The position numbers were made by a program, and so were the translations under genes. From NCBI GenBank assembly GCA_903892905.1, contig CAITKI010000066.1:1-59057 (forward strand): a stretch of DNA of 59,057 bases. The letters run 5' to 3'. Source of the stretch: an uncultured Candidatus Micrarchaeota archaeon. Lineage in GTDB: Archaea; Micrarchaeota; Micrarchaeia; Anstonellales; Anstonellaceae. The notes below the pieces were generated by a model, which worked only from the letters and a program-made list of their open reading frames with translations, was not told the DNA's origin and searched no databases. This document shows, piece by piece, positions 1,933-41,713 of the stretch; positions within the stretch are counted from its first letter, which is position 1; every line of letters starts with the position of its first letter.

Positions 1933-2973
1933 ATGGCAAGGGTGAGAAGGAAGCTTGGGAAGGGGAAGCATTACGATGCGCTTAGGCGCGAGAATGCCAG
2001 CCTGCCGGACGGCATGCTTGCGCGGCTCGTGAACCAGAAATATGCCGTGGTGGGCGAGCACTCTGCTGCCAAGCTTTGCCATTGGGCAGGCGAGTCCCTG
2101 CGCGGCAGGGGCGAATGCTACAAGTCGAAGTTCTACGGCATTTCATCGCACCGCTGCCTGCAGTGCACGCCGGTGCTGCAGTTCTGCAACCACGCGTGCG
2201 TCTTTTGCTGGAGGATGATGCCGGAAAGGGACAAGTACGGAGATGTAAAGGGCTTTGCATGGGGCGAGCCGGAAGAAATTGCCGACGGGCTAGTAAATGC
2301 ACAGAAAACATTGGTGGCTGGCTTTGGCGGCAACCCCGAAGTTAAACGCACGCTTTATCTTGAGGCGCTCTCACCCAAGCATGTTGCGCTTTCCCTGACA
2401 GGGGAGCCCACAATGTACCCGAAGATGGACAGGCTGCTGTCTGATTTCCATGCGAGGGGCATGACCACGTTTGTTGTCACCAACGGCACGCTTCCAGAGG
2501 CAGTTGCCAGGTGGAAGGTGCTGCCCACGCAATTTTATGTTTCCATGGTGGCACCGAATGAGAAAGTTTACAAGCGCTTTATACGCCCTTCAACGCCAGG
2601 GCTTTGGAAAAAATACCTGCGCACGTTGGAGATGATGCCGGAGATTGGGAAGAAAACGAGAACGGTGCTGCGGATGACGATTGCTCGGGGCGTGAACGAT
2701 GGCGACCTGGAAGACTATGCTGCACAGATTCGGCTCGCGCAGCCGCATTATGTGGAAGTGAAAAGCATGGTGTTTGTGGGCGGCGCGCGCTCGCCTGAGA
2801 GGGGCTTGGCGCTTGAAAGCATGCTGAAGATGGAGGAAATAAGCAAGATTGCGGAAGAACTGGCGCAGATGACAGGCTACAAGCTTGTTGATTTCCATGC
2901 TCCTTCGAGGGTTGCGTTGCTTTGCAGGGACGGGAAAACTGAAAAAGAGAGGAAGATAACATCGGTGAGGTGA
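1933..2973 (+). CDS. taw1: 4-demethylwyosine synthase (TYW1/Taw1), radical SAM
   Basis: Radical-SAM CxxxCxxC motif CNHACVFCWR preceded by a second Cys cluster (CHWAGESLRGRGECYKSKFYGISSHRCLQC), as in TYW1. The ORF-track GTG at 1915 is replaced by the ATG at 1933 on promoter spacing. Confidence 0.85.
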   Translation: MARVRRKLGKGKHYDALRRENASLPDGMLARLVNQKYAVVGEHSAAKLCHWAGESLRGRGECYKSKFYGISSHRCLQCTPVLQFCNHACVFCWRMMPERDKYGDVKGFAWGEPEEIADGLVNAQKTLVAGFGGNPEVKRTLYLEALSPKHVALSLTGEPTMYPKMDRLLSDFHARGMTTFVVTNGTLPEAVARWKVLPTQFYVSMVAPNEKVYKRFIRPSTPGLWKKYLRTLEMMPEIGKKTRTVLRMTIARGVNDGDLEDYAAQIRLAQPHYVEVKSMVFVGGARSPERGLALESMLKMEEISKIAEELAQMTGYKLVDFHAPSRVALLCRDGKTEKERKITSVR

Positions 2974-2977
2974 AAGT

Positions 2978-3304
2978 ATGAAAGAACATTTGAAGAATGG
3001 GAATGCGCTTCTGGCACTTTCGGTTTTTGGGCTGCTTGCTCTGGCAGCCGTGCTTTACATGGGAAATGAGTTTGCAAAGCAAAACAAAAATTCGCCAATG
3101 GCAACCGCAGATTATTCAATATTGGCTTTGGCAATTGTTGTTGGCGTGGCTTGGTTGGCCACACTCATACTTGGAGAATATGACGTATTGGCTTCCAAAA
3201 ACAATGCGGCGTGGAAAATAGCATGGGGTCTTGCAATACTGGTGTTGAGCTTTGCAGGGGCGATACTCTACTGTTTGATTGGAAAGGAAGGCAGGAAAAG
3301 TTGA
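2978..3304 (+). CDS. small membrane protein (three predicted TM helices)
   Basis: Hydrophobic segments LLALSVFGLLALAAVLY, ILALAIVVGVAWLATLIL, IAWGLAILVLSFAGAILYCLIG. The C-terminal helix resembles PLD-N-terminal-type small membrane domains. Confidence 0.6.
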   Translation: MKEHLKNGNALLALSVFGLLALAAVLYMGNEFAKQNKNSPMATADYSILALAIVVGVAWLATLILGEYDVLASKNNAAWKIAWGLAILVLSFAGAILYCLIGKEGRKS

Positions 3305-3308
3305 TGGA

Positions 3309-3908
3309 ATGGGAGTAAAAGCAGTCATTTTCGACATTGACGGCGTGCTTGCCGACTCGCGCAATGCGGTTGCGCACAACACCAAGCAGCTTATGCGCGA
3401 GTTCGGCTTTGACGTGCCTGATGCGCGCGTAGATGGCATGTCAAGCGCGCACTCTGCCGAGTCGGTGCTGGTTGCGCTGGCCCCGCCGCTTGAGAAGGAC
3501 GCCGTTATGAGGAAAAAAATGCTGAACCGGCTGCGAGAGCTTACTGTGGAGAATATGGCGCTTGTGATGCCGTCGCTTCTTGCTGCACAGGTGCCTGCAC
3601 TTGCCGCGCGCTACAGGCTTGCTGCTGCAAGCAACAGGAAATCATCAGCGCAACTTGTACTGAAAGTGCTGGGTATTGAGAAGTATTTCGAGGTCGTGAT
3701 GAACAGCGAGGGAATCCCTGTCAAGCCTGACCCCACCATGATCAGGCTTGCACTGGGGAAGATGGGCTTGCGCGCGGAAGAAGCTGTTTTTGTAGGCGAC
3801 AATGTGGAAGACATGCAGGCGGGGCAGGGCGCGGGCGTGCGCTCCATCATGCTGGATGGCACGGATGAGAAGAAAGTCGCTGCTTTTGTGAAGGAATTTT
3901 TGGGCTAG
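3309..3908 (+). CDS. HAD-superfamily hydrolase
   Basis: Motif I AVIFDIDGVLADS and motif IV-like VGDNVEDMQAG. The ATG at 3309 follows the stop of the previous gene (3304). Confidence 0.8.
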   Translation: MGVKAVIFDIDGVLADSRNAVAHNTKQLMREFGFDVPDARVDGMSSAHSAESVLVALAPPLEKDAVMRKKMLNRLRELTVENMALVMPSLLAAQVPALAARYRLAAASNRKSSAQLVLKVLGIEKYFEVVMNSEGIPVKPDPTMIRLALGKMGLRAEEAVFVGDNVEDMQAGQGAGVRSIMLDGTDEKKVAAFVKEFLG

Positions 3909-17397: not shown

Positions 17398-17413
17398 AAA
17401 TGAGATTGGAGAG

Positions 17414-17506
17414 CGGGCCCAGTGGGATTCGAACCCACGACACGTGGATGGCTCTGCGCGTTCGCGCATAAGAGTCCACTGCTCTACCAAGCTGAGCTAT
17501 GGGCCC
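17414..17506 (-). tRNA. tRNA-Lys(CUU) with 19-nt canonical intron
   Basis: Minus strand reads GGGCCCA TA GCTC..GAGC A GTGGA CTCTTA[TGCGCGAACGCGCAGAGCC]A TCCAC GTGTC GTGGG TTCGAAT CCCAC TGGGCCC G. The intron at 37/38 folds as bulge-helix-bulge: CUCU/AGAG central 4-bp helix, GCGC-GAAC-GCGC outer helix. Confidence 0.9.
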
Positions 17507-18960: not shown

Positions 18961-19253
18961 AACCCTTAGCAGCGGCACTGATTTTTCGTGCCCCACACCT
19001 ACCCCTGGAGTTCCGGTAATAGGGGGGAGTGATTTTGTGTTTGTATCCGATGATTTTTGTTGTTTGTGATGTTTATAGTTGTTTATTGTAACCATAGTTA
19101 CATATATATACAATCAAAAATATCTTTTATTATTATAGGAAGTATGGGGGTCTGGTGGAGGGGGTGGGGTGGTTGAGGGATTGAACAAAACGCGGCAAAA
19201 ACCACAAAAAAAAAACAAACCAAAATAAAGAAAAATAAAACAAAAAAGAAAAA

Positions 19254-19370
19254 TAGCGGGAAGTGGATTTGAACCACTGATCTCTGGGTTATGAGCCCAG
19301 CGGGCACTCCAAACTACCCTTAGGTTCGTTCTAAAACAAGCAACTATAGTTCTAAAACAATTATCCCGCT
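19254..19370 (-). tRNA. initiator tRNA-Met(CAU), apparently interrupted between positions 9 and 10 by about 42 nt
   Basis: Contiguous 3' part 19254-19319: GGGT..GCCC G CTGGG CTCATAA CCCAG AGATC AGTGG TTCAAAT CCACT TCCCGCT A. It has three G:C pairs at the base of the anticodon stem and U72. The matching 5' acceptor AGCGGGA+TA is found only at 19362-19370. No BHB could be folded by eye. Confidence 0.55.
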
Positions 19371-20227
19371 AGTTTGGCGTCTATCAAGTGCCTTTCCAAC
19401 ATAATGAGGGTAAACACATTAATATCTATCTGTGCCAGCGCGCGGTATTCCTCCAACCTCCCAATCTCAGTTACGACGATCAATCTCGCGTTGGGGTGTT
19501 GTTTTTTTATAAACCCCCACTTTTTCCTCAATTCCCTTATTTTTTCTTCAGAATTACTCCAATAAGTGGCTTCTATGAACAAATTCAGGGCGCTGGGCAG
19601 CACAAAATCAACAGATAAAAAACCATTCCTATTATTTGCCGCCAGGATTTTTTCATAAACATACTCCAAACCCAATCTATCCAAAACCCTAGCCACCGAA
19701 ACTTCAAGCCTGTTATACATTTTTTCTCCATGAGGGCCAGTCAACTTCTTTCCCGTTCGCTTCAATCCCAACGTCGACCACACCCGTCTCGCGTCTGGGC
19801 TTGCCTTGTGGATGCCAACACATCTTGCATACGACGTTTTCCCGGCGGCTCTGCACTTATCCACCCATTCATCATAGAATTGCAAATCCTTCATGGATTC
19901 TCTAAGCTTCTCAATCCCACTTTTCGAGCCCCTCCTGGCCTTTGCAAGCCAGGCCACCCTAAACGCCTTCTCCTGCATTTTGGCGCCCAAACTCTCCTTC
20001 ACCCTCAAGCTCATTTTTCTCAAATATTCCAGGCGATAGCCCGGCTCAGCCAGTTTTCTTGCTACGGCTTTGCCTCCATTGGAATGAGCAATCTCCAAAT
20101 ACCGACGGCGCCCCAACATATTCACTAAATATTCCCGTATCATTGCTTTCTTGGCTGCATGCTCATTTGAAAGCTCCTTAAGGCTCGCCCCGCTGACAAA
20201 ACTTGCCAATATTCCTTGCCTGTCCAT
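19361..20227 (-). CDS. hypothetical protein with possible C-terminal PD-(D/E)XK (Vsr/DUF559-like) nuclease fold; low-GC gene
   Basis: C-terminal pattern LEVSVARVLDRLGLEYVYEKIL...GFLSVDFVLPSALNLFIEATYW. GC is visibly lower than in neighbouring genes. TATA tatttataa lies about 30 nt upstream. The last codons overlap the candidate 5' exon of the initiator tRNA. Confidence 0.5.
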   Translation of the reverse strand: MDRQGILASFVSGASLKELSNEHAAKKAMIREYLVNMLGRRRYLEIAHSNGGKAVARKLAEPGYRLEYLRKMSLRVKESLGAKMQEKAFRVAWLAKARRGSKSGIEKLRESMKDLQFYDEWVDKCRAAGKTSYARCVGIHKASPDARRVWSTLGLKRTGKKLTGPHGEKMYNRLEVSVARVLDRLGLEYVYEKILAANNRNGFLSVDFVLPSALNLFIEATYWSNSEEKIRELRKKWGFIKKQHPNARLIVVTEIGRLEEYRALAQIDINVFTLIMLERHLIDAKLAG

Positions 20228-20292
20228 AAAACAAGAGCAGAATCCTTACTTATAAATACTTCTTGGGTGGCATTCCGGTGGCAATAGGGGTG

Positions 20293-21626: not shown

Positions 21627-22247
21627 TCAAACTGGCGGCATGCATTTCACAATCCAATCCCTGCCAATCTGCTTTTTTGTTATTTGCTGGCCCTCAATGT
21701 AGGTAATGTACTCAAAGCCAAGTGACTTGTAGTCAAGCGTGCCTGGCGATGCGCTGGAGTTCTGGCAGATTGAGGATGCACCGCCAATATAAGGACCTGT
21801 TGACGTGCCTGTTATTGCGACAATATGCCAACCGCAAGCAGTGCCAAACAGGCTGGACGATGCAAAATACTTCTCTTCTCCTGGTCCAAGGTAAAAGTAA
21901 TCGCTGATGCTTTTGGTGCCCGCTGCCCCTGCGCAACTAGCGCCATAAAACTGTATTATGCTTGTGCCATCTCCGCCTACTATCTTTGTTATCCTTATTG
22001 GCTGCACGCCGTTGTTCCTAAGTCTCAAATAAAGATATGTGTCTCCACTTACAGAATACGCTCTCGCCCCACTCTCAACAATCGAAATGGGCGTTGCGCT
22101 TTGCCAATACATCTGCGACTGTGTTATCTGCGAATCCGACGCCATCCCCGGGAAAAAGCCGAGCAAAGCAACACTTACGAGCGCTACGATTAGGACAACG
22201 GCGAGTAGAACAAGATACTCCGTAGCCCCCTGCGCGCGTAGTTGCAT
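21627..22247 (-). CDS. class III signal peptide pilin-like protein, paralog 1 of a 3-member family
   Basis: MQLRAQGATEYLVLLAVVLIVALVSVALLGFFPG. The N-terminal about 55 aa and C-terminal about 50 aa (ICQNS.ASPGTLDYKSLGFEYI.Y..GQQITKKQ.G.DWIVKCMPP) are shared with 31100-31948 and 33830-34678. ATG confirmed at 22247. Confidence 0.8.
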   Translation of the reverse strand: MQLRAQGATEYLVLLAVVLIVALVSVALLGFFPGMASDSQITQSQMYWQSATPISIVESGARAYSVSGDTYLYLRLRNNGVQPIRITKIVGGDGTSIIQFYGASCAGAAGTKSISDYFYLGPGEEKYFASSSLFGTACGWHIVAITGTSTGPYIGGASSICQNSSASPGTLDYKSLGFEYITYIEGQQITKKQIGRDWIVKCMPPV

Positions 22248-22256
22248 GCCTATTGC

Positions 22257-22280
22257 GGGGGGGGGGGCGGAACTTTTATA
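22257..22280 (-). promoter_or_regulatory. pilin promoter: TATA (tataaaag on minus strand, 22273-22280) and 11-nt homopolymer (G11 on plus strand, 22257-22267)
   Basis: Minus strand reads tataaaagttccg-C11-gcaataggcATG. The TATA is 26 nt from the ATG. The same promoter is found at 34679-34708 with C9. Confidence 0.6.
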
Positions 22281-22290
22281 CATATCGTCT

Positions 22291-23561
22291 TTACATGTCA
22301 ATTTCACTCAGCAAGGGAAGTCAAATCCACTGGCATCCTACTTCCGAAACCTTCATAAGCAAAATAATTGATAATAAAACTATGAAAATGAGAACGTATC
22401 GTTTCAGAATATATCCTTCAAAAGCGCAGGAGAAGCAGATGTGCCAACACCTCTGGCTAGCAAAGAATCTGTGGAATGACCTCCTCGAACATAGCAAAGA
22501 GCTGTACAGAAACTTTGATAAGTTTCCAACAAGAAACTCATTGCAATTGATGGTCAAGGACACCGGCATGTTCTCACAAACATCCCAAGAGATAGCCCAT
22601 CGTGTTGAAAATGGCATCTGGAGATATATGAAGCTTAGGAAAGCCGGAAATAAAAAAGCGGGCTTTCCGCGCTTTAGATCCGCTGATAGAATGAAAAGCC
22701 TCAACTATCCGCAATTTGGTTTCTTCCTTGAAAAGAAACTCAAGGTAAATCCATTTGGAGAAATTCCTATTGTGCGGCACAGAGAGGTAAACGGCAAAAT
22801 AAAGACGCTGACACTCAAAAGAGAGGCATCTGGAAAGTGGTTTGCTTGTTTTGCAGTTGAAGAACCCCCTGCCATCAGGCTGGCGAACGGTGGCTCGAGG
22901 ATAGGTATTGACCTTGGATTGAGGGTATTGGCAACCCTTTCCAACGGTTCAAAGATAAACAATCCCAGGCATATTAGAAAGCACCAGGAGAAAATCGCCT
23001 TCCTACAGAGACTAAGTAATAGGAAAAAGAAAGGAGGAAAAAACAGAGTAAGGGCTAAGCAGAAAGTTGCCGTTGAGTTTGAGAAGCTTAAGAACGTAAG
23101 AAGGGACTTTCTGCACAAGCTATCAAAAAATCTAGTCGATTCATATTCTTTCATTGCCCTGGAAGACCTGGCATCGCAGGAGCTTGCCGAGCAGAACTTC
23201 GGCAAGCAGATATATGATGCTGGTTGGGGCGAATTGGCGGACATGCTGCGCTACAAGGCTGAAAGCGCTGGTTGCGAGATCATGTTTGTCAATCCAAAGG
23301 ATACGACAAAAACATGCTGCATTTGTGGAAATATGGCGGATATGCCACTGGCAGTTCGGATATATGACTGCCACAACTGCGGCAATCATATGGATAGGGA
23401 TTTAAACGCAGCATATAACATACTCAAAAGAGCTACTGCCGGATCGGCAGAAAGTAACGCTTGTGGAGATGTCTCAAAAAAGACGTCTGTGAAACAGGAA
23501 GCCATAGCCTCGCCATCGGGCAGGTTAGGGCAGTTCACAACCTTACAGCCACTATCCTAAC
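22291..23561 (+). mobile_element. IS200/IS605-family tnpB-only (IS1341-like) element; ends not defined
   Basis: tnpB ORF without tnpA; lower GC than flanks. The left limit is bounded by the pilin promoter shared with paralog 3 (ends about 22288). The right limit is bounded by the PIN gene ATG at 23562. Subterminal inverted repeat ggaagt..acttcc at about 22316-22345. Confidence 0.55.
22382..23560 (+). CDS. tnpB: RNA-guided endonuclease TnpB (OrfB_IS605)
   Basis: N-terminus MKMRTYRFRIYPSKAQEKQM; RuvC motifs IGIDLGL, IALEDL, MDRDLNAAYNI; zinc finger CCICGN...CHNCGN; C-terminal tail NACGD..SVKQEA typical of the region that overlaps the omega-RNA. Confidence 0.9.
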   Translation: MKMRTYRFRIYPSKAQEKQMCQHLWLAKNLWNDLLEHSKELYRNFDKFPTRNSLQLMVKDTGMFSQTSQEIAHRVENGIWRYMKLRKAGNKKAGFPRFRSADRMKSLNYPQFGFFLEKKLKVNPFGEIPIVRHREVNGKIKTLTLKREASGKWFACFAVEEPPAIRLANGGSRIGIDLGLRVLATLSNGSKINNPRHIRKHQEKIAFLQRLSNRKKKGGKNRVRAKQKVAVEFEKLKNVRRDFLHKLSKNLVDSYSFIALEDLASQELAEQNFGKQIYDAGWGELADMLRYKAESAGCEIMFVNPKDTTKTCCICGNMADMPLAVRIYDCHNCGNHMDRDLNAAYNILKRATAGSAESNACGDVSKKTSVKQEAIASPSGRLGQFTTLQPLS

Positions 23562-41107: not shown

Positions 41108-41713
41108 CTACCTGCTCATCCTTTTCACAACAAGCGGCTCCACATGCAGCACCACGTTGGAAAAAACCTCATCCTTTGCTCGGCCGGCATCCACCACTGC
41201 GTACTTGTAGGCAAGGAAGCCCTCGCGCGCCTCGCGCAGGTAGTTTTCGCGCACTTTCTCCAAAAAATCAATGTCCTTCTCGAACCTGTCTGGCGTTTTC
41301 TGCGCGCGCTTCCTCTCTCCTGACACGCGCGCGGGGACATCGAGAAGGATGACAATGTCCGGCACAAGCGCGTCAATGCCCGAAAGCTGTTTCTTGAGCT
41401 GCGCAAAGCCCAGCGCCACGCCCTGGTAGGCAAGCGTGGAGTGCAGGTACCTGTCGCACACCACCACGAACCCGTCAGAAATTTCCTGCTCGATTTTGCG
41501 GCGCTCATCCACAATGTCGTCGGCAAAAACGTCCGCAAGCTTCCCAGGCGCCACTTCGCTCTTCCCAGACAGGTGCGCAAAAGCCTCCTTGGCGCGCCGC
41601 GTGGGGTACTTGTGCAGCCTGCACTTTATCCCGCTCTGCGCAAAAAAAGCAAGCAGGCGCCGAATCTGCCCGCCCTTGCCCGAGCCGTCTATCCCTTCGA
41701 ATACAATGAGCAT
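41108..41713 (-). CDS. tmk: thymidylate kinase
   Basis: P-loop IVFEGIDGSGKGGQ; DRY motif CDRYLHS. Confidence 0.9.
   Translation of the reverse strand: MLIVFEGIDGSGKGGQIRRLLAFFAQSGIKCRLHKYPTRRAKEAFAHLSGKSEVAPGKLADVFADDIVDERRKIEQEISDGFVVVCDRYLHSTLAYQGVALGFAQLKKQLSGIDALVPDIVILLDVPARVSGERKRAQKTPDRFEKDIDFLEKVRENYLREAREGFLAYKYAVVDAGRAKDEVFSNVVLHVEPLVVKRMSR

Follow-up and report, generated by a model that had tools for sequence, protein, structure and literature searches.

It is still debated by what route archaea gain tRNA introns and how these introns move. Among the described systems, one of the closest to the locus presented here is ARMAN-2 (Candidatus Micrarchaeum), which has non-canonically placed tRNA introns and a three-unit splicing endonuclease (EndA) of the ε2 type (Fujishima et al., 2011, PMC3239211; structure 4FZ2, PMC3488258). 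The ε2 EndA cuts canonical as well as relaxed or non-canonical bulge–helix–bulge (BHB) structures, and the tRNAs of ARMAN-2 are heavily interrupted (PMC3239211). The window analysed here, a stretch of 59,057 nucleotides comprising positions 1 to 59,057 of contig CAITKI010000066.1 (assembly GCA_903892905.1) from an uncultured Candidatus Micrarchaeota archaeon, carries a gene for initiator tRNA-Met (tRNA-iMet) on its minus strand at 19254-19370. Very probably, this is a working gene with a BHB intron between tRNA nucleotides 9 and 10 (position 9/10), derived from an insertion of about 1 kb whose only gene is the adjoining open reading frame ORF288.

The phylum and the enzyme type are the same as in ARMAN-2, and in both cases protein-spliced BHB introns lie outside position 37/38. 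The ARMAN-2 intron positions 53/54 and 59/60 also occur in the tRNA-iMet of relatives of the window. Unlike in ARMAN-2, the BHB at this locus makes use of the acceptor 5' strand and of a 5' leader that codes for protein. The words "initiator" and "iMet" do not occur in the ARMAN-2 report (PMC3239211), position 9/10 is not among the intron positions in the review PMC4090602, and a literature search on an intron in a Micrarchaeota initiator tRNA found nothing. As an intron, it belongs to the known archaeal BHB class, in a phylum from which such introns have been described; it differs in the position 9/10, the initiator host, the BHB built from acceptor strand and coding leader, and the triple overlap described below.

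As regards the insertion, the closest precedent is the tRNA-Thr(GGU) gene of Caldiarchaeum subterraneum, which gained an intron via an integrated element; recombination between an intron-bearing attP and an intron-less attB has been proposed (Sugahara et al., 2012, PMC3293823). Its arrangement of a 5' tRNA fragment, an insert, an ORF directly upstream on the same strand, and a reconstituted tRNA with an extra intron in the repeated segment is seen here in four related loci (L004, L005, L011 and L040). The ORF measures 813 bp in Caldiarchaeum and 867 bp in the window. In Caldiarchaeum, one population is concerned, the intron lies at 24/25, and the 1.9-kb insert includes the repeated "a" region, whereas the present case involves a protein family of dozens of lineages, always at tRNA-iMet, with the intron at 9/10 and the ORF overlapping the tRNA. 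Also unlike Caldiarchaeum, some species here have empty sites and others occupied ones, and there are derivatives with a deleted ORF. Sugahara et al. (2012) based their mobile-element model on one population, to which this locus adds a whole family; as an insertion, it is a second, far richer instance of intron gain via an integrating element. Occupied sites, empty sites, left-junction deletions and ORF deletions can be compared at one target, together with a single candidate protein that can be assayed.

Integrases of the pNOB8 and SSV types integrate at tRNA genes, the 3' end of which is replaced. They share with this locus the tRNA target, which is reconstituted at one junction and partially repeated at the other. 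Unlike them, ORF288 has no tyrosine-recombinase domain, the element is only about 1 kb long, and the 5' end of the tRNA is replaced, together with an intron. Collaborative homing has been described for F-CphI beside the psbA group I intron of cyanophage S-PM2 (PMC6083498) and for mobE/I-TevIII in T4 (PMC2790892). As with F-CphI and psbA, a nuclease gene of junction-resolvase-like fold stands here beside an intron-containing gene, the intron splits a sequence that is contiguous in intron-less alleles, and the distribution is patchy. However, those are self-splicing group I introns in phage protein genes, whereas the present one is a BHB intron in a cellular tRNA, the nuclease is known by its fold, and a flanking repeat points to integration. 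In the split tRNAs of Nanoarchaeum equitans and in permuted tRNAs (reviewed in PMC4090602), sequence outside the mature tRNA likewise pairs to build a BHB that is cut by EndA, but here the pieces are contiguous and only the outer helix is drawn from the leader. In Thermoproteales, introns at position 3/4 (Sugahara et al., 2008, cited in PMC4090602) also lie in or beside the acceptor 5' strand and need a fold that competes with the cloverleaf. They differ in phylum and enzyme, which is of the (αβ)2 type, and no linked ORF is reported in the account of them given there.

The tRNA-iMet gene and its probable intron

On the minus strand, the locus reads GCC AAA CUA GCG GGA UAA, followed by UUGUUUUAGAACUAUAGUUGCUUGUUUUAGAACGAACCUAA GGGUAGUUUGGAGUGCCCG CUGGGCUCAUAACCCAG AGAUC AGUGGUUCAAAUCCACU UCCCGCU A and a long T-rich tract. 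Exon 1 (AGCGGGAUA, 19362-19370) comprises tRNA nucleotides 1-9, the intron occupies 42 nt (19320-19361), and exon 2 (19254-19319) comprises nucleotides 10-73, namely the D arm, the anticodon arm with CAU, the T arm, the 3' acceptor strand and the discriminator A. Exon 2 starts with GGGUAG and ends with UCCCGCUA. Archaeal initiator tRNA-Met is distinguished by the anticodon CAU, an A1:U72 pair and three consecutive G:C pairs (29-31:39-41) in the anticodon stem. The gene has the anticodon CAU, the stem CUGGG/CCCAG with three G:C pairs, and the 3' strand UCCCGCU, which implies A1:U72. A preliminary description of this stretch had recognised an initiator tRNA from the D arm to the 3' end on these grounds, and sequence, Rfam and the ARAGORN cloverleaf bear it out. 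The Rfam tRNA model matches 19320-19262 with 36.7 bits (gathering score 29), a match restricted to model positions 9-63. ARAGORN makes no tRNA call at 19254-19370 when run on the window, nor on the unspliced precursor or, in its intron mode, on related loci. With the 42 nt taken out in silico, the program recognises a clean tRNA-Met(CAT) of 75 nt with a standard cloverleaf. Standard tRNA finders thus miss this gene, so that Micrarchaeota genomes carrying it look initiator-less.

The 9 nt immediately 5' of exon 2 (CGAACCUAA) do not pair with the 3' strand. The complement, AGCGGGA followed by TA, lies at 19362-19370 and overlaps the stop of the ORF at 19361-20227, as had been described; exon 1 doubles as the last codons of ORF288 (cuA GCG GGA UAa). 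AGCGGGATA has exactly three exact copies in the 59-kb window, both strands counted, so the expected number of copies on the right strand at most about 100 nt upstream is about 0.003. Neither of the other two (1832-1840 and 41627-41635) has a tRNA-like context, and both were set aside as chance matches. No second initiator-type anticodon arm was found within the 59-kb window. The 42-nt spacer contains the direct repeat (TTGTTTTAGAAC, twice) and the palindrome (AACTATAGTT) noted earlier. Since G:U pairing makes GUUUUAGAAC self-complementary, the two repeats act as the arms of an RNA hairpin of 12 bp.

BHB structures were sought by a scan of every pair of cut sites under the canonical geometry, i.e. 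a 4-bp helix, 3-nt bulges, flanking helices and cuts after the second bulge nucleotide. In this blind scan, the pair 9/51 ranks first, with three of the four central pairs formed and with cuts after A9 and before G10 that give the correct tRNA. The predicted structure has two 3-nt bulges around the 4-bp helix, flanked by helices, with the cuts at the exon–intron junctions. The 5' strand of the central helix (H) is G4 G5 G6 A7 (19364-19367) and the 3' strand (H') is ACCU (19322-19325), which ends two nucleotides before the 3' end of the intron; G4-U, G5-C and G6-C pair with 19322-19324, while A7 stands opposite an A at 19325. The 5' bulge B1 (U8 A9 A, 19361-19363) would be cut after A9 and the 3' bulge B2 (A A G10, 19319-19321) before G10. 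The inner helix h' is the intron hairpin (19326-19360) of the minimum free energy (MFE) fold, with 12 bp (19360-19349 with 19337-19326) and an 11-nt loop. In the outer helix, the leader CCAAACU (19371-19377, positions -7 to -1), A1 and C3 pair with tRNA nucleotides 11-19 (GGUAGUUUGG, 19309-19318), from G19 to U13 and with G11 in the D arm; nine of ten pairs form, with one G2.G12 mismatch. The same leader encodes A-K-L near the C-terminus of ORF288, as (gC)C AAA CU(a). Other registers, in which U8 pairs or the cuts fall at 8/50 or 10/50, scored lower or gave the wrong tRNA. The preliminary description had found no convincing BHB by eye; one appeared once the scan was run and the leader was included. 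As read from the sequence, this BHB combines the acceptor 5' strand with a protein-coding leader, and the UAA stop codon of ORF288, tRNA nucleotides 8-9 and the predicted splice bulge fall on the same three bases.

The expected cutter of this intron is encoded at 624-1829 on the minus strand. It is a three-unit EndA of the ε2 type with 401 aa, two stretches of the Pfam domain tRNA_int_endo and an N-terminal domain. Residues 2-401 align over the full length to 4FZ2, the ε2 EndA of ARMAN-2 (E 6.8e-126), in agreement with the earlier suggestion that the window encodes a multi-unit EndA of broad specificity. The host thus encodes a splicing endonuclease for non-canonical positions, and this enzyme probably cleaves the 9/10 intron. 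The primary transcript with its 5' leader would fold into the 3-4-3 BHB, the EndA would cut after A9 and before G10, an RtcB-type ligase would join the exons, and RNase P would then trim the leader, in keeping with the known pathway. Since the BHB is built on the leader, splicing must precede trimming by RNase P. The helix between leader and D arm is the MFE fold until the 3' acceptor strand exists, and the BHB presumably forms by co-transcriptional folding.

When one genome per species was searched with a 38-nt pattern taken from the tRNA body, 31 loci came up, all in Micrarchaeota. Most carry an uninterrupted gene, with AGCGGGAUA joined directly to GGGUAG; two have the 9/10 intron (L011 and L021), and others have inserts at 53/54 or 59/60. 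Neither a 9/10 intron nor ORF288 is present in 25 of the 31. Ten more loci came from a metagenome scan for the 9/10 design, and three more distant ORF288 relatives, found by a profile search, also precede a tRNA-iMet with the 9/10 intron. The layout occurs in 18 distinct related sequences, with introns of 14-44 nt; close ORF288 homologues are followed on their contigs by this same split tRNA, the introns of which measure 42, 41, 39 and 14 nt. Relatives with an intron ending in U pin the junction to 9/10, and the intron hairpin abuts the 5' bulge in all 18 distinct sequences.

These relatives also differ at paired positions. The A7:U66 pair is replaced by G7:C66, so that the displaced exon 1 and the 3' strand have changed in a compensatory way, and the central helix has all four pairs in every G7 lineage compared with three in the window. 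Leader position -3 covaries with nucleotide 16, as A:U in the window, G:C in L004 and G:U in L044. An alignment of the junction regions of 12 sequences (A3), put together by the author from trimmed segments and with the structure taken from the window sequence, has 84.9% of cells paired, compared with at most 50.8% for slid partners. In its inner helix, all eight counted pairs have changed on both sides and 92.7% of cells are paired; on four of five measures, the observed value was reached by none of 500 shuffles. The duplex of leader and exon 2 averages -13.1 kcal/mol at intron loci and -6.35 kcal/mol at the 25 intact loci (Mann–Whitney p 1.7e-6, a value that overstates the evidence because related sequences are not independent). 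The CCAAACU region of the leader is retained even where ORF288 is deleted. The non-canonical intron near position 9/10 suggested in the preliminary description is thus supported by a BHB with cuts at 9/10 and by covariation in deep relatives.

Further peculiarities were seen in the tRNA-iMet genes of relatives. On a 1071-nt contig (L046), the gene apparently has three introns, of 39 nt at 9/10, of about 23 nt after CUCAUAA in the anticodon loop and of about 31 nt after CCCAGA in the variable region. In five loci without the 9/10 intron (L019, L020, L022, L024 and L035), either ...CAGUGG is followed by an insert of about 35-45 nt (53/54) or GGUUCAAA by one of about 70 nt (59/60). By the look of these sequences, the initiator tRNA gene is an intron hot spot in Micrarchaeota. 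The anticodon loop of L004 (2408-2480) is CCCAUAA, with C instead of U at position 33, and an integrase gene of the rve family (2633-3827) is inserted just downstream of this tRNA.

The inserted element and ORF288

The element spans approximately 19311-20279 on the minus strand and comprises a left arm, ORF288 (19361-20227), the replacement exon 1 and the intron, and it reaches 8-9 nt into exon 2. Its extent is based on homology to occupied sites (L005, L004, L011 and L040) and an empty one (L033), and the repeat leaves an uncertainty of about 9 nt in the boundaries. On the contigs of ORF288 homologues, the gene order is aTrm56, TFE, ORF288, tRNA and PRC-barrel. Where relatives lack the intron, TFE is followed by a conserved TATA-like box and then by the tRNA, and ORF288 was found near none of the intron-less loci. 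Each 9/10-intron locus with enough upstream sequence has either ORF288 or a 3' remnant of it (43 nt in L041, 22 codons in L044, 26 nt in L045 and about 13 nt in L021); L037 starts too near the tRNA to tell. The deletions of ORF288 always leave the leader, exon 1 and the intron.

In L004, L005, L011 and L040, the old promoter precedes nucleotides 1-17/18 of an intron-less tRNA, after which a short arm leads to ORF288, exon 1, the intron and the remaining part of the tRNA. Both flanks of the 902-bp insert of L011 can be aligned with the intact locus L033, a homologue of the empty site; the inserts of L040, L004 and L005 measure 907, 943 and 966 bp. Together, these five loci present the partial tRNA repeat and the empty site expected of attL and attR. 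In the window, L002 and L038, the old promoter and the fragment are gone owing to a shared deletion of the left junction, which is why the window lacks the repeat of nucleotides 1-17. Here, the TFE stop is followed by 13 nt and then by ACCGGAAUG (20279-20271), which comes after the tRNA fragment in L005. A reading of ORF288 as part of a giant intron of about 950 nt, from A9 of the fragment to the 3' end of the intron, was rejected on inspection: the nucleotides after the bulge of the fragment do not pair with the 3' part of the intron, and exon 1 persists in the window lineage although the fragment is lost there.

An insertion of 0.9-1.0 kb probably targets the 5' end of Micrarchaeota tRNA-iMet genes and supplies a replacement 5' end with an intron. 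The proposed event, in agreement with the model for tRNA-Thr of Caldiarchaeum (PMC3293823), is a Campbell-type integration of a circle of about 1 kb, with an attachment region made up of exon 1, the intron and nucleotides 10-17 and a crossover within nucleotides 10-17. It would leave the old promoter and tRNA nucleotides 1-17 on the left, the part now deleted in the window lineage. Integration of the neighbouring low-GC DNA had been raised in the preliminary description as an alternative to splicing; as the origin of the intron, in one insertion of about 1 kb, the idea stands, whereas the disruption or death of the gene that it implied does not.

The protein encoded by ORF288 has an N-terminus resembling a helix-turn-helix, a helical middle and a C-terminal domain (about residues 170-288) resembling PD-(D/E)XK nucleases. 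It has 14 close homologues of about 288 aa with 47-98% identity and a nearly invariant C-terminus, KLAG; a profile search gave 89 representatives at 50% clustering. No Pfam family came at or near threshold for ORF288, and no recombinase family was found in it or in nine relatives. Against PHROGs, there were only matches with E >= 0.03, and viral contigs contained no ORF288 relative. The profile weakly matches T7 endonuclease I among Protein Data Bank (PDB) sequences (E 0.14-0.3), and the relative P0068 matches the Pfam family Phage_endo_I (E 6e-4). The full-length structural model is mediocre (pLDDT 75) and has weak Foldseek matches. The matches of the N-terminus to helix-turn-helix proteins are weak. 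Modelled alone, the C-terminal 124 residues reach a pLDDT of 88 with an alpha-beta-beta-beta-alpha-beta core, which Foldseek matches in the PDB to XisH, VC1899 and NucS/EndoMS (probability 0.96-1.0). Among the viral models of BFVD, 27 match with E<=1e-3; Endonuclease I, DUF559 and restriction endonucleases are represented there, along with a "group I intron protein" and "homing endonucleases". E175, D207 and E219 are invariant among homologues, as are K193 and K229, which could stand in for a catalytic lysine. The superfamily is marked by such a core and by conserved acidic residues on helix 1, strand 2 and strand 3; the models and the conserved residues support a PD-(D/E)XK nuclease fold for the C-terminal domain.

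Distant members of the family with a different N-terminus and the same nuclease domain are P0054 and P0049. At about 905-985 of L049 and 1-30 of L052, they adjoin antisense 5' fragments of another tRNA (GGGCCCGUAGCUCAGC... and ...CCCGUACGCUCAGCUUGGUAGAGC) on contigs of only 1 kb, and the wider family may target other tRNA genes too. In L047 (1160-1189), the ORF of a distant relative crosses exon 1 in another frame (AGC GGG GUA, S-G-V) and ends 21 nt into the intron. Other family members that end in ...SGVTNS... would seem to share this read-through arrangement.

Origin and spread of the insertion

Several observations weigh against a spliced gene derived from a mobile element. The BHB conformer (-34.8 kcal/mol) is less stable than the cloverleaf with the intron hairpin (-42.8 kcal/mol), so splicing needs an alternative or co-transcriptional fold. 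The A7 lineage to which the window belongs has an A.A mismatch beside the 5' bulge besides the G2.G12 mismatch in the outer helix, and in the G7 lineages the leader helix is in a shifted register with an internal loop (CUCCAA:UUGGAG or CUCCUAGC:GCCAGGAG) and is weak in L050 (-3.9 kcal/mol). Apart from the relatedness of the sequences compared, the way in which A3 was built, by the author and with a structure derived from the window, favours the structure tested. The window itself lacks the left junction, and its status as an element rests on homology to relatives. In ORF288, the lack of a recombinase domain according to Pfam and the motif E219-A-T221, in which a threonine takes the place of the lysine of the T7 endonuclease I alignment, leave activity and role unproven. 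Lastly, identities of ORF288 and of host genes run in parallel (81 and 80%, 61 and 57%, 47 and 46%, 38.5 and 36%), which fits long vertical descent as well as mobility.

Judging from the modelled fold, ORF288 most likely serves the mobility of the element; a mobility protein of nuclease fold is the least certain step in the proposed mechanism. The intron would allow the element to restore a functional tRNA while breaking the contiguous DNA target. It is tentatively suggested, with rather less than even confidence, that ORF288 represents a new family of selfish elements in DPANN archaea that target tRNA genes, whose site-specific PD-(D/E)XK nuclease would attack the uninterrupted tRNA-iMet gene and drive the insertion of the cassette of about 1 kb. 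The cassette would repair the gene by means of its own 5' end, the intron at 9/10 and the left truncation would destroy the target, and the host EndA would restore the RNA. If this is true, it would be the first identified agent and mechanism for the gain and spread of archaeal protein-spliced tRNA introns, and the host splicing system would act as the immunity device of the element.

The alternative that survives best, doubtful as it is, is collaborative homing, in which ORF288 would cut the intron-less tRNA-iMet gene near 9/10 and double-strand-break repair would copy ORF288 and the intron from an occupied allele by gene conversion, not by integration of a circle. The nuclease fold is one that phage homing endonucleases and group I intron proteins also have, the linkage of ORF and intron is strict, repeated losses of the ORF have left the intron in place, and there is the parallel of F-CphI and the psbA intron (PMC6083498). 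Element-bearing lineages are also interleaved with intact ones: in trees of Trm56 and TFE or of four proteins, the intact loci L008, L025, L006, L014 and L016 fall among the element-bearing window and L002/L038, and L045, with the 9/10 intron, is 91% identical to L022, which has a 53/54 intron and no 9/10 intron. The left deletion is common to the window, L002 and L038, and the ancestral promoter is present in their intact relatives, which implies that whole alleles have to some extent been exchanged. These are, however, neighbour-joining trees of two to four short proteins without support values, and the mode of spread is therefore left open. Homing alone does not create the repeat of intron-less tRNA nucleotides 1-17 upstream of ORF288 in L004, L005, L011 and L040, and the divergence of ORF288 equals that of the host. 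Homing may be a later mode of spread layered on the original integration, so that the two are not fully exclusive.

A single ancient insertion followed by vertical descent is unlikely. ORF288 would now be an ordinary host gene with no part in mobility, and the patchy distribution would reflect repeated deletion between the repeats. The identity of ORF288 tracks that of TFE and Trm56, the synteny Trm56-TFE-ORF288-tRNA-PRC is conserved, all full-length ORFs are intact with invariant acidic residues, viral contigs yielded no copy, and the window holds a single one. Against it, L008 and L025 combine the ancestral promoter with an intact gene, yet they group with L002/L038, in which the left repeat that a precise excision would need is missing; the unsupported neighbour-joining trees make this a weak argument. 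The GC content at third codon positions of ORF288 is below that of its neighbours in all seven loci with a comparable neighbouring gene. A nuclease-assisted element ranks above a domesticated host gene.

It is very improbable that the gene is dead, that is, broken by the DNA of ORF288, with a spacer that is never removed and an intact copy at work elsewhere. ARAGORN makes no call here, the flanking DNA is lower in GC, and the search for a second initiator covered the window. Duplicates do occur: the metagenome-assembled genome (MAG) AlinenSediments bin-2344 has two uninterrupted tRNA-iMet genes on different contigs (L010 and L033). However, both exons have stayed perfect in lineages that share only 36-47% identity in their neighbouring proteins, the acceptor stem (7:66) and the T stem retain compensatory changes, the BHB of the intron covaries, and no deletion of ORF288 extends into the leader, exon 1 or the intron. 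The two MAGs with the intron in the genome collection (L011 and L021) each gave just this one match to the tRNA-body pattern.

A split tRNA, also considered in the preliminary description, would have its 5' piece encoded elsewhere and joined in trans, with the nearby AGCGGGAUA a coincidence; archaeal split tRNAs with complementary leader and trailer are known (PMC4090602) and AGCGGGATA occurs at two other sites of the window, but those stand in unrelated contexts, the exons lie 42 nt apart on one strand with no need of a separate promoter, and the adjacent copy is kept at 14-44 nt in 18 relatives and covaries with the 3' strand, which leaves this explanation a negligible chance.

Expression signals and neighbouring genes

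A TATA-like ATATTAAT lies 48-55 nt 5' of tRNA nucleotide 1 (19418-19425, minus strand), within the ORF288 codons for D-I-N, and is a candidate tRNA promoter. Codon identity is raised in the surrounding QIDINV block (0.68 compared with a baseline of about 0.5), with an invariant AAT, and synonymous conservation is also raised in the last five codons of ORF288. ORF-deleted alleles have a TATA box at the same distance from the tRNA as ATATTAAT in the window. A second TATA-like motif, TTTATAA (20250-20256, minus strand), 23-29 nt 5' of the ATG of ORF288, probably serves this gene, the mRNA of which would be leaderless. The T-rich tract immediately 3' of the discriminator base (19206-19253, minus strand) is likely an archaeal terminator. 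The list of ORFs also shows short ones over the tRNA and the T-rich tract (19098-19307, minus strand) and antisense to ORF288 (19374-19618, plus strand), which look like artefacts of the tract and of antisense frames, not genes.

Another interrupted tRNA gene lies at 17413-17506 on the minus strand. Labelled "tRNA-???" by ARAGORN, it encodes a tRNA-Lys(CUU) whose anticodon loop carries about 20 extra nt at or beside the canonical position 37/38 (Rfam 59.6 bits). On the other side of the element, a TnpB/IS605 OrfB gene (22253-23560, plus strand) and a pilin-like ORF with a class-III signal peptide (21627-22307, minus strand) lie between aTrm56 and a PIN gene (21627-23560). This pair is present in L001 and not in the syntenic L002, L003 and L005, which makes it an insertion polymorphism, and the GC content is lowered there.

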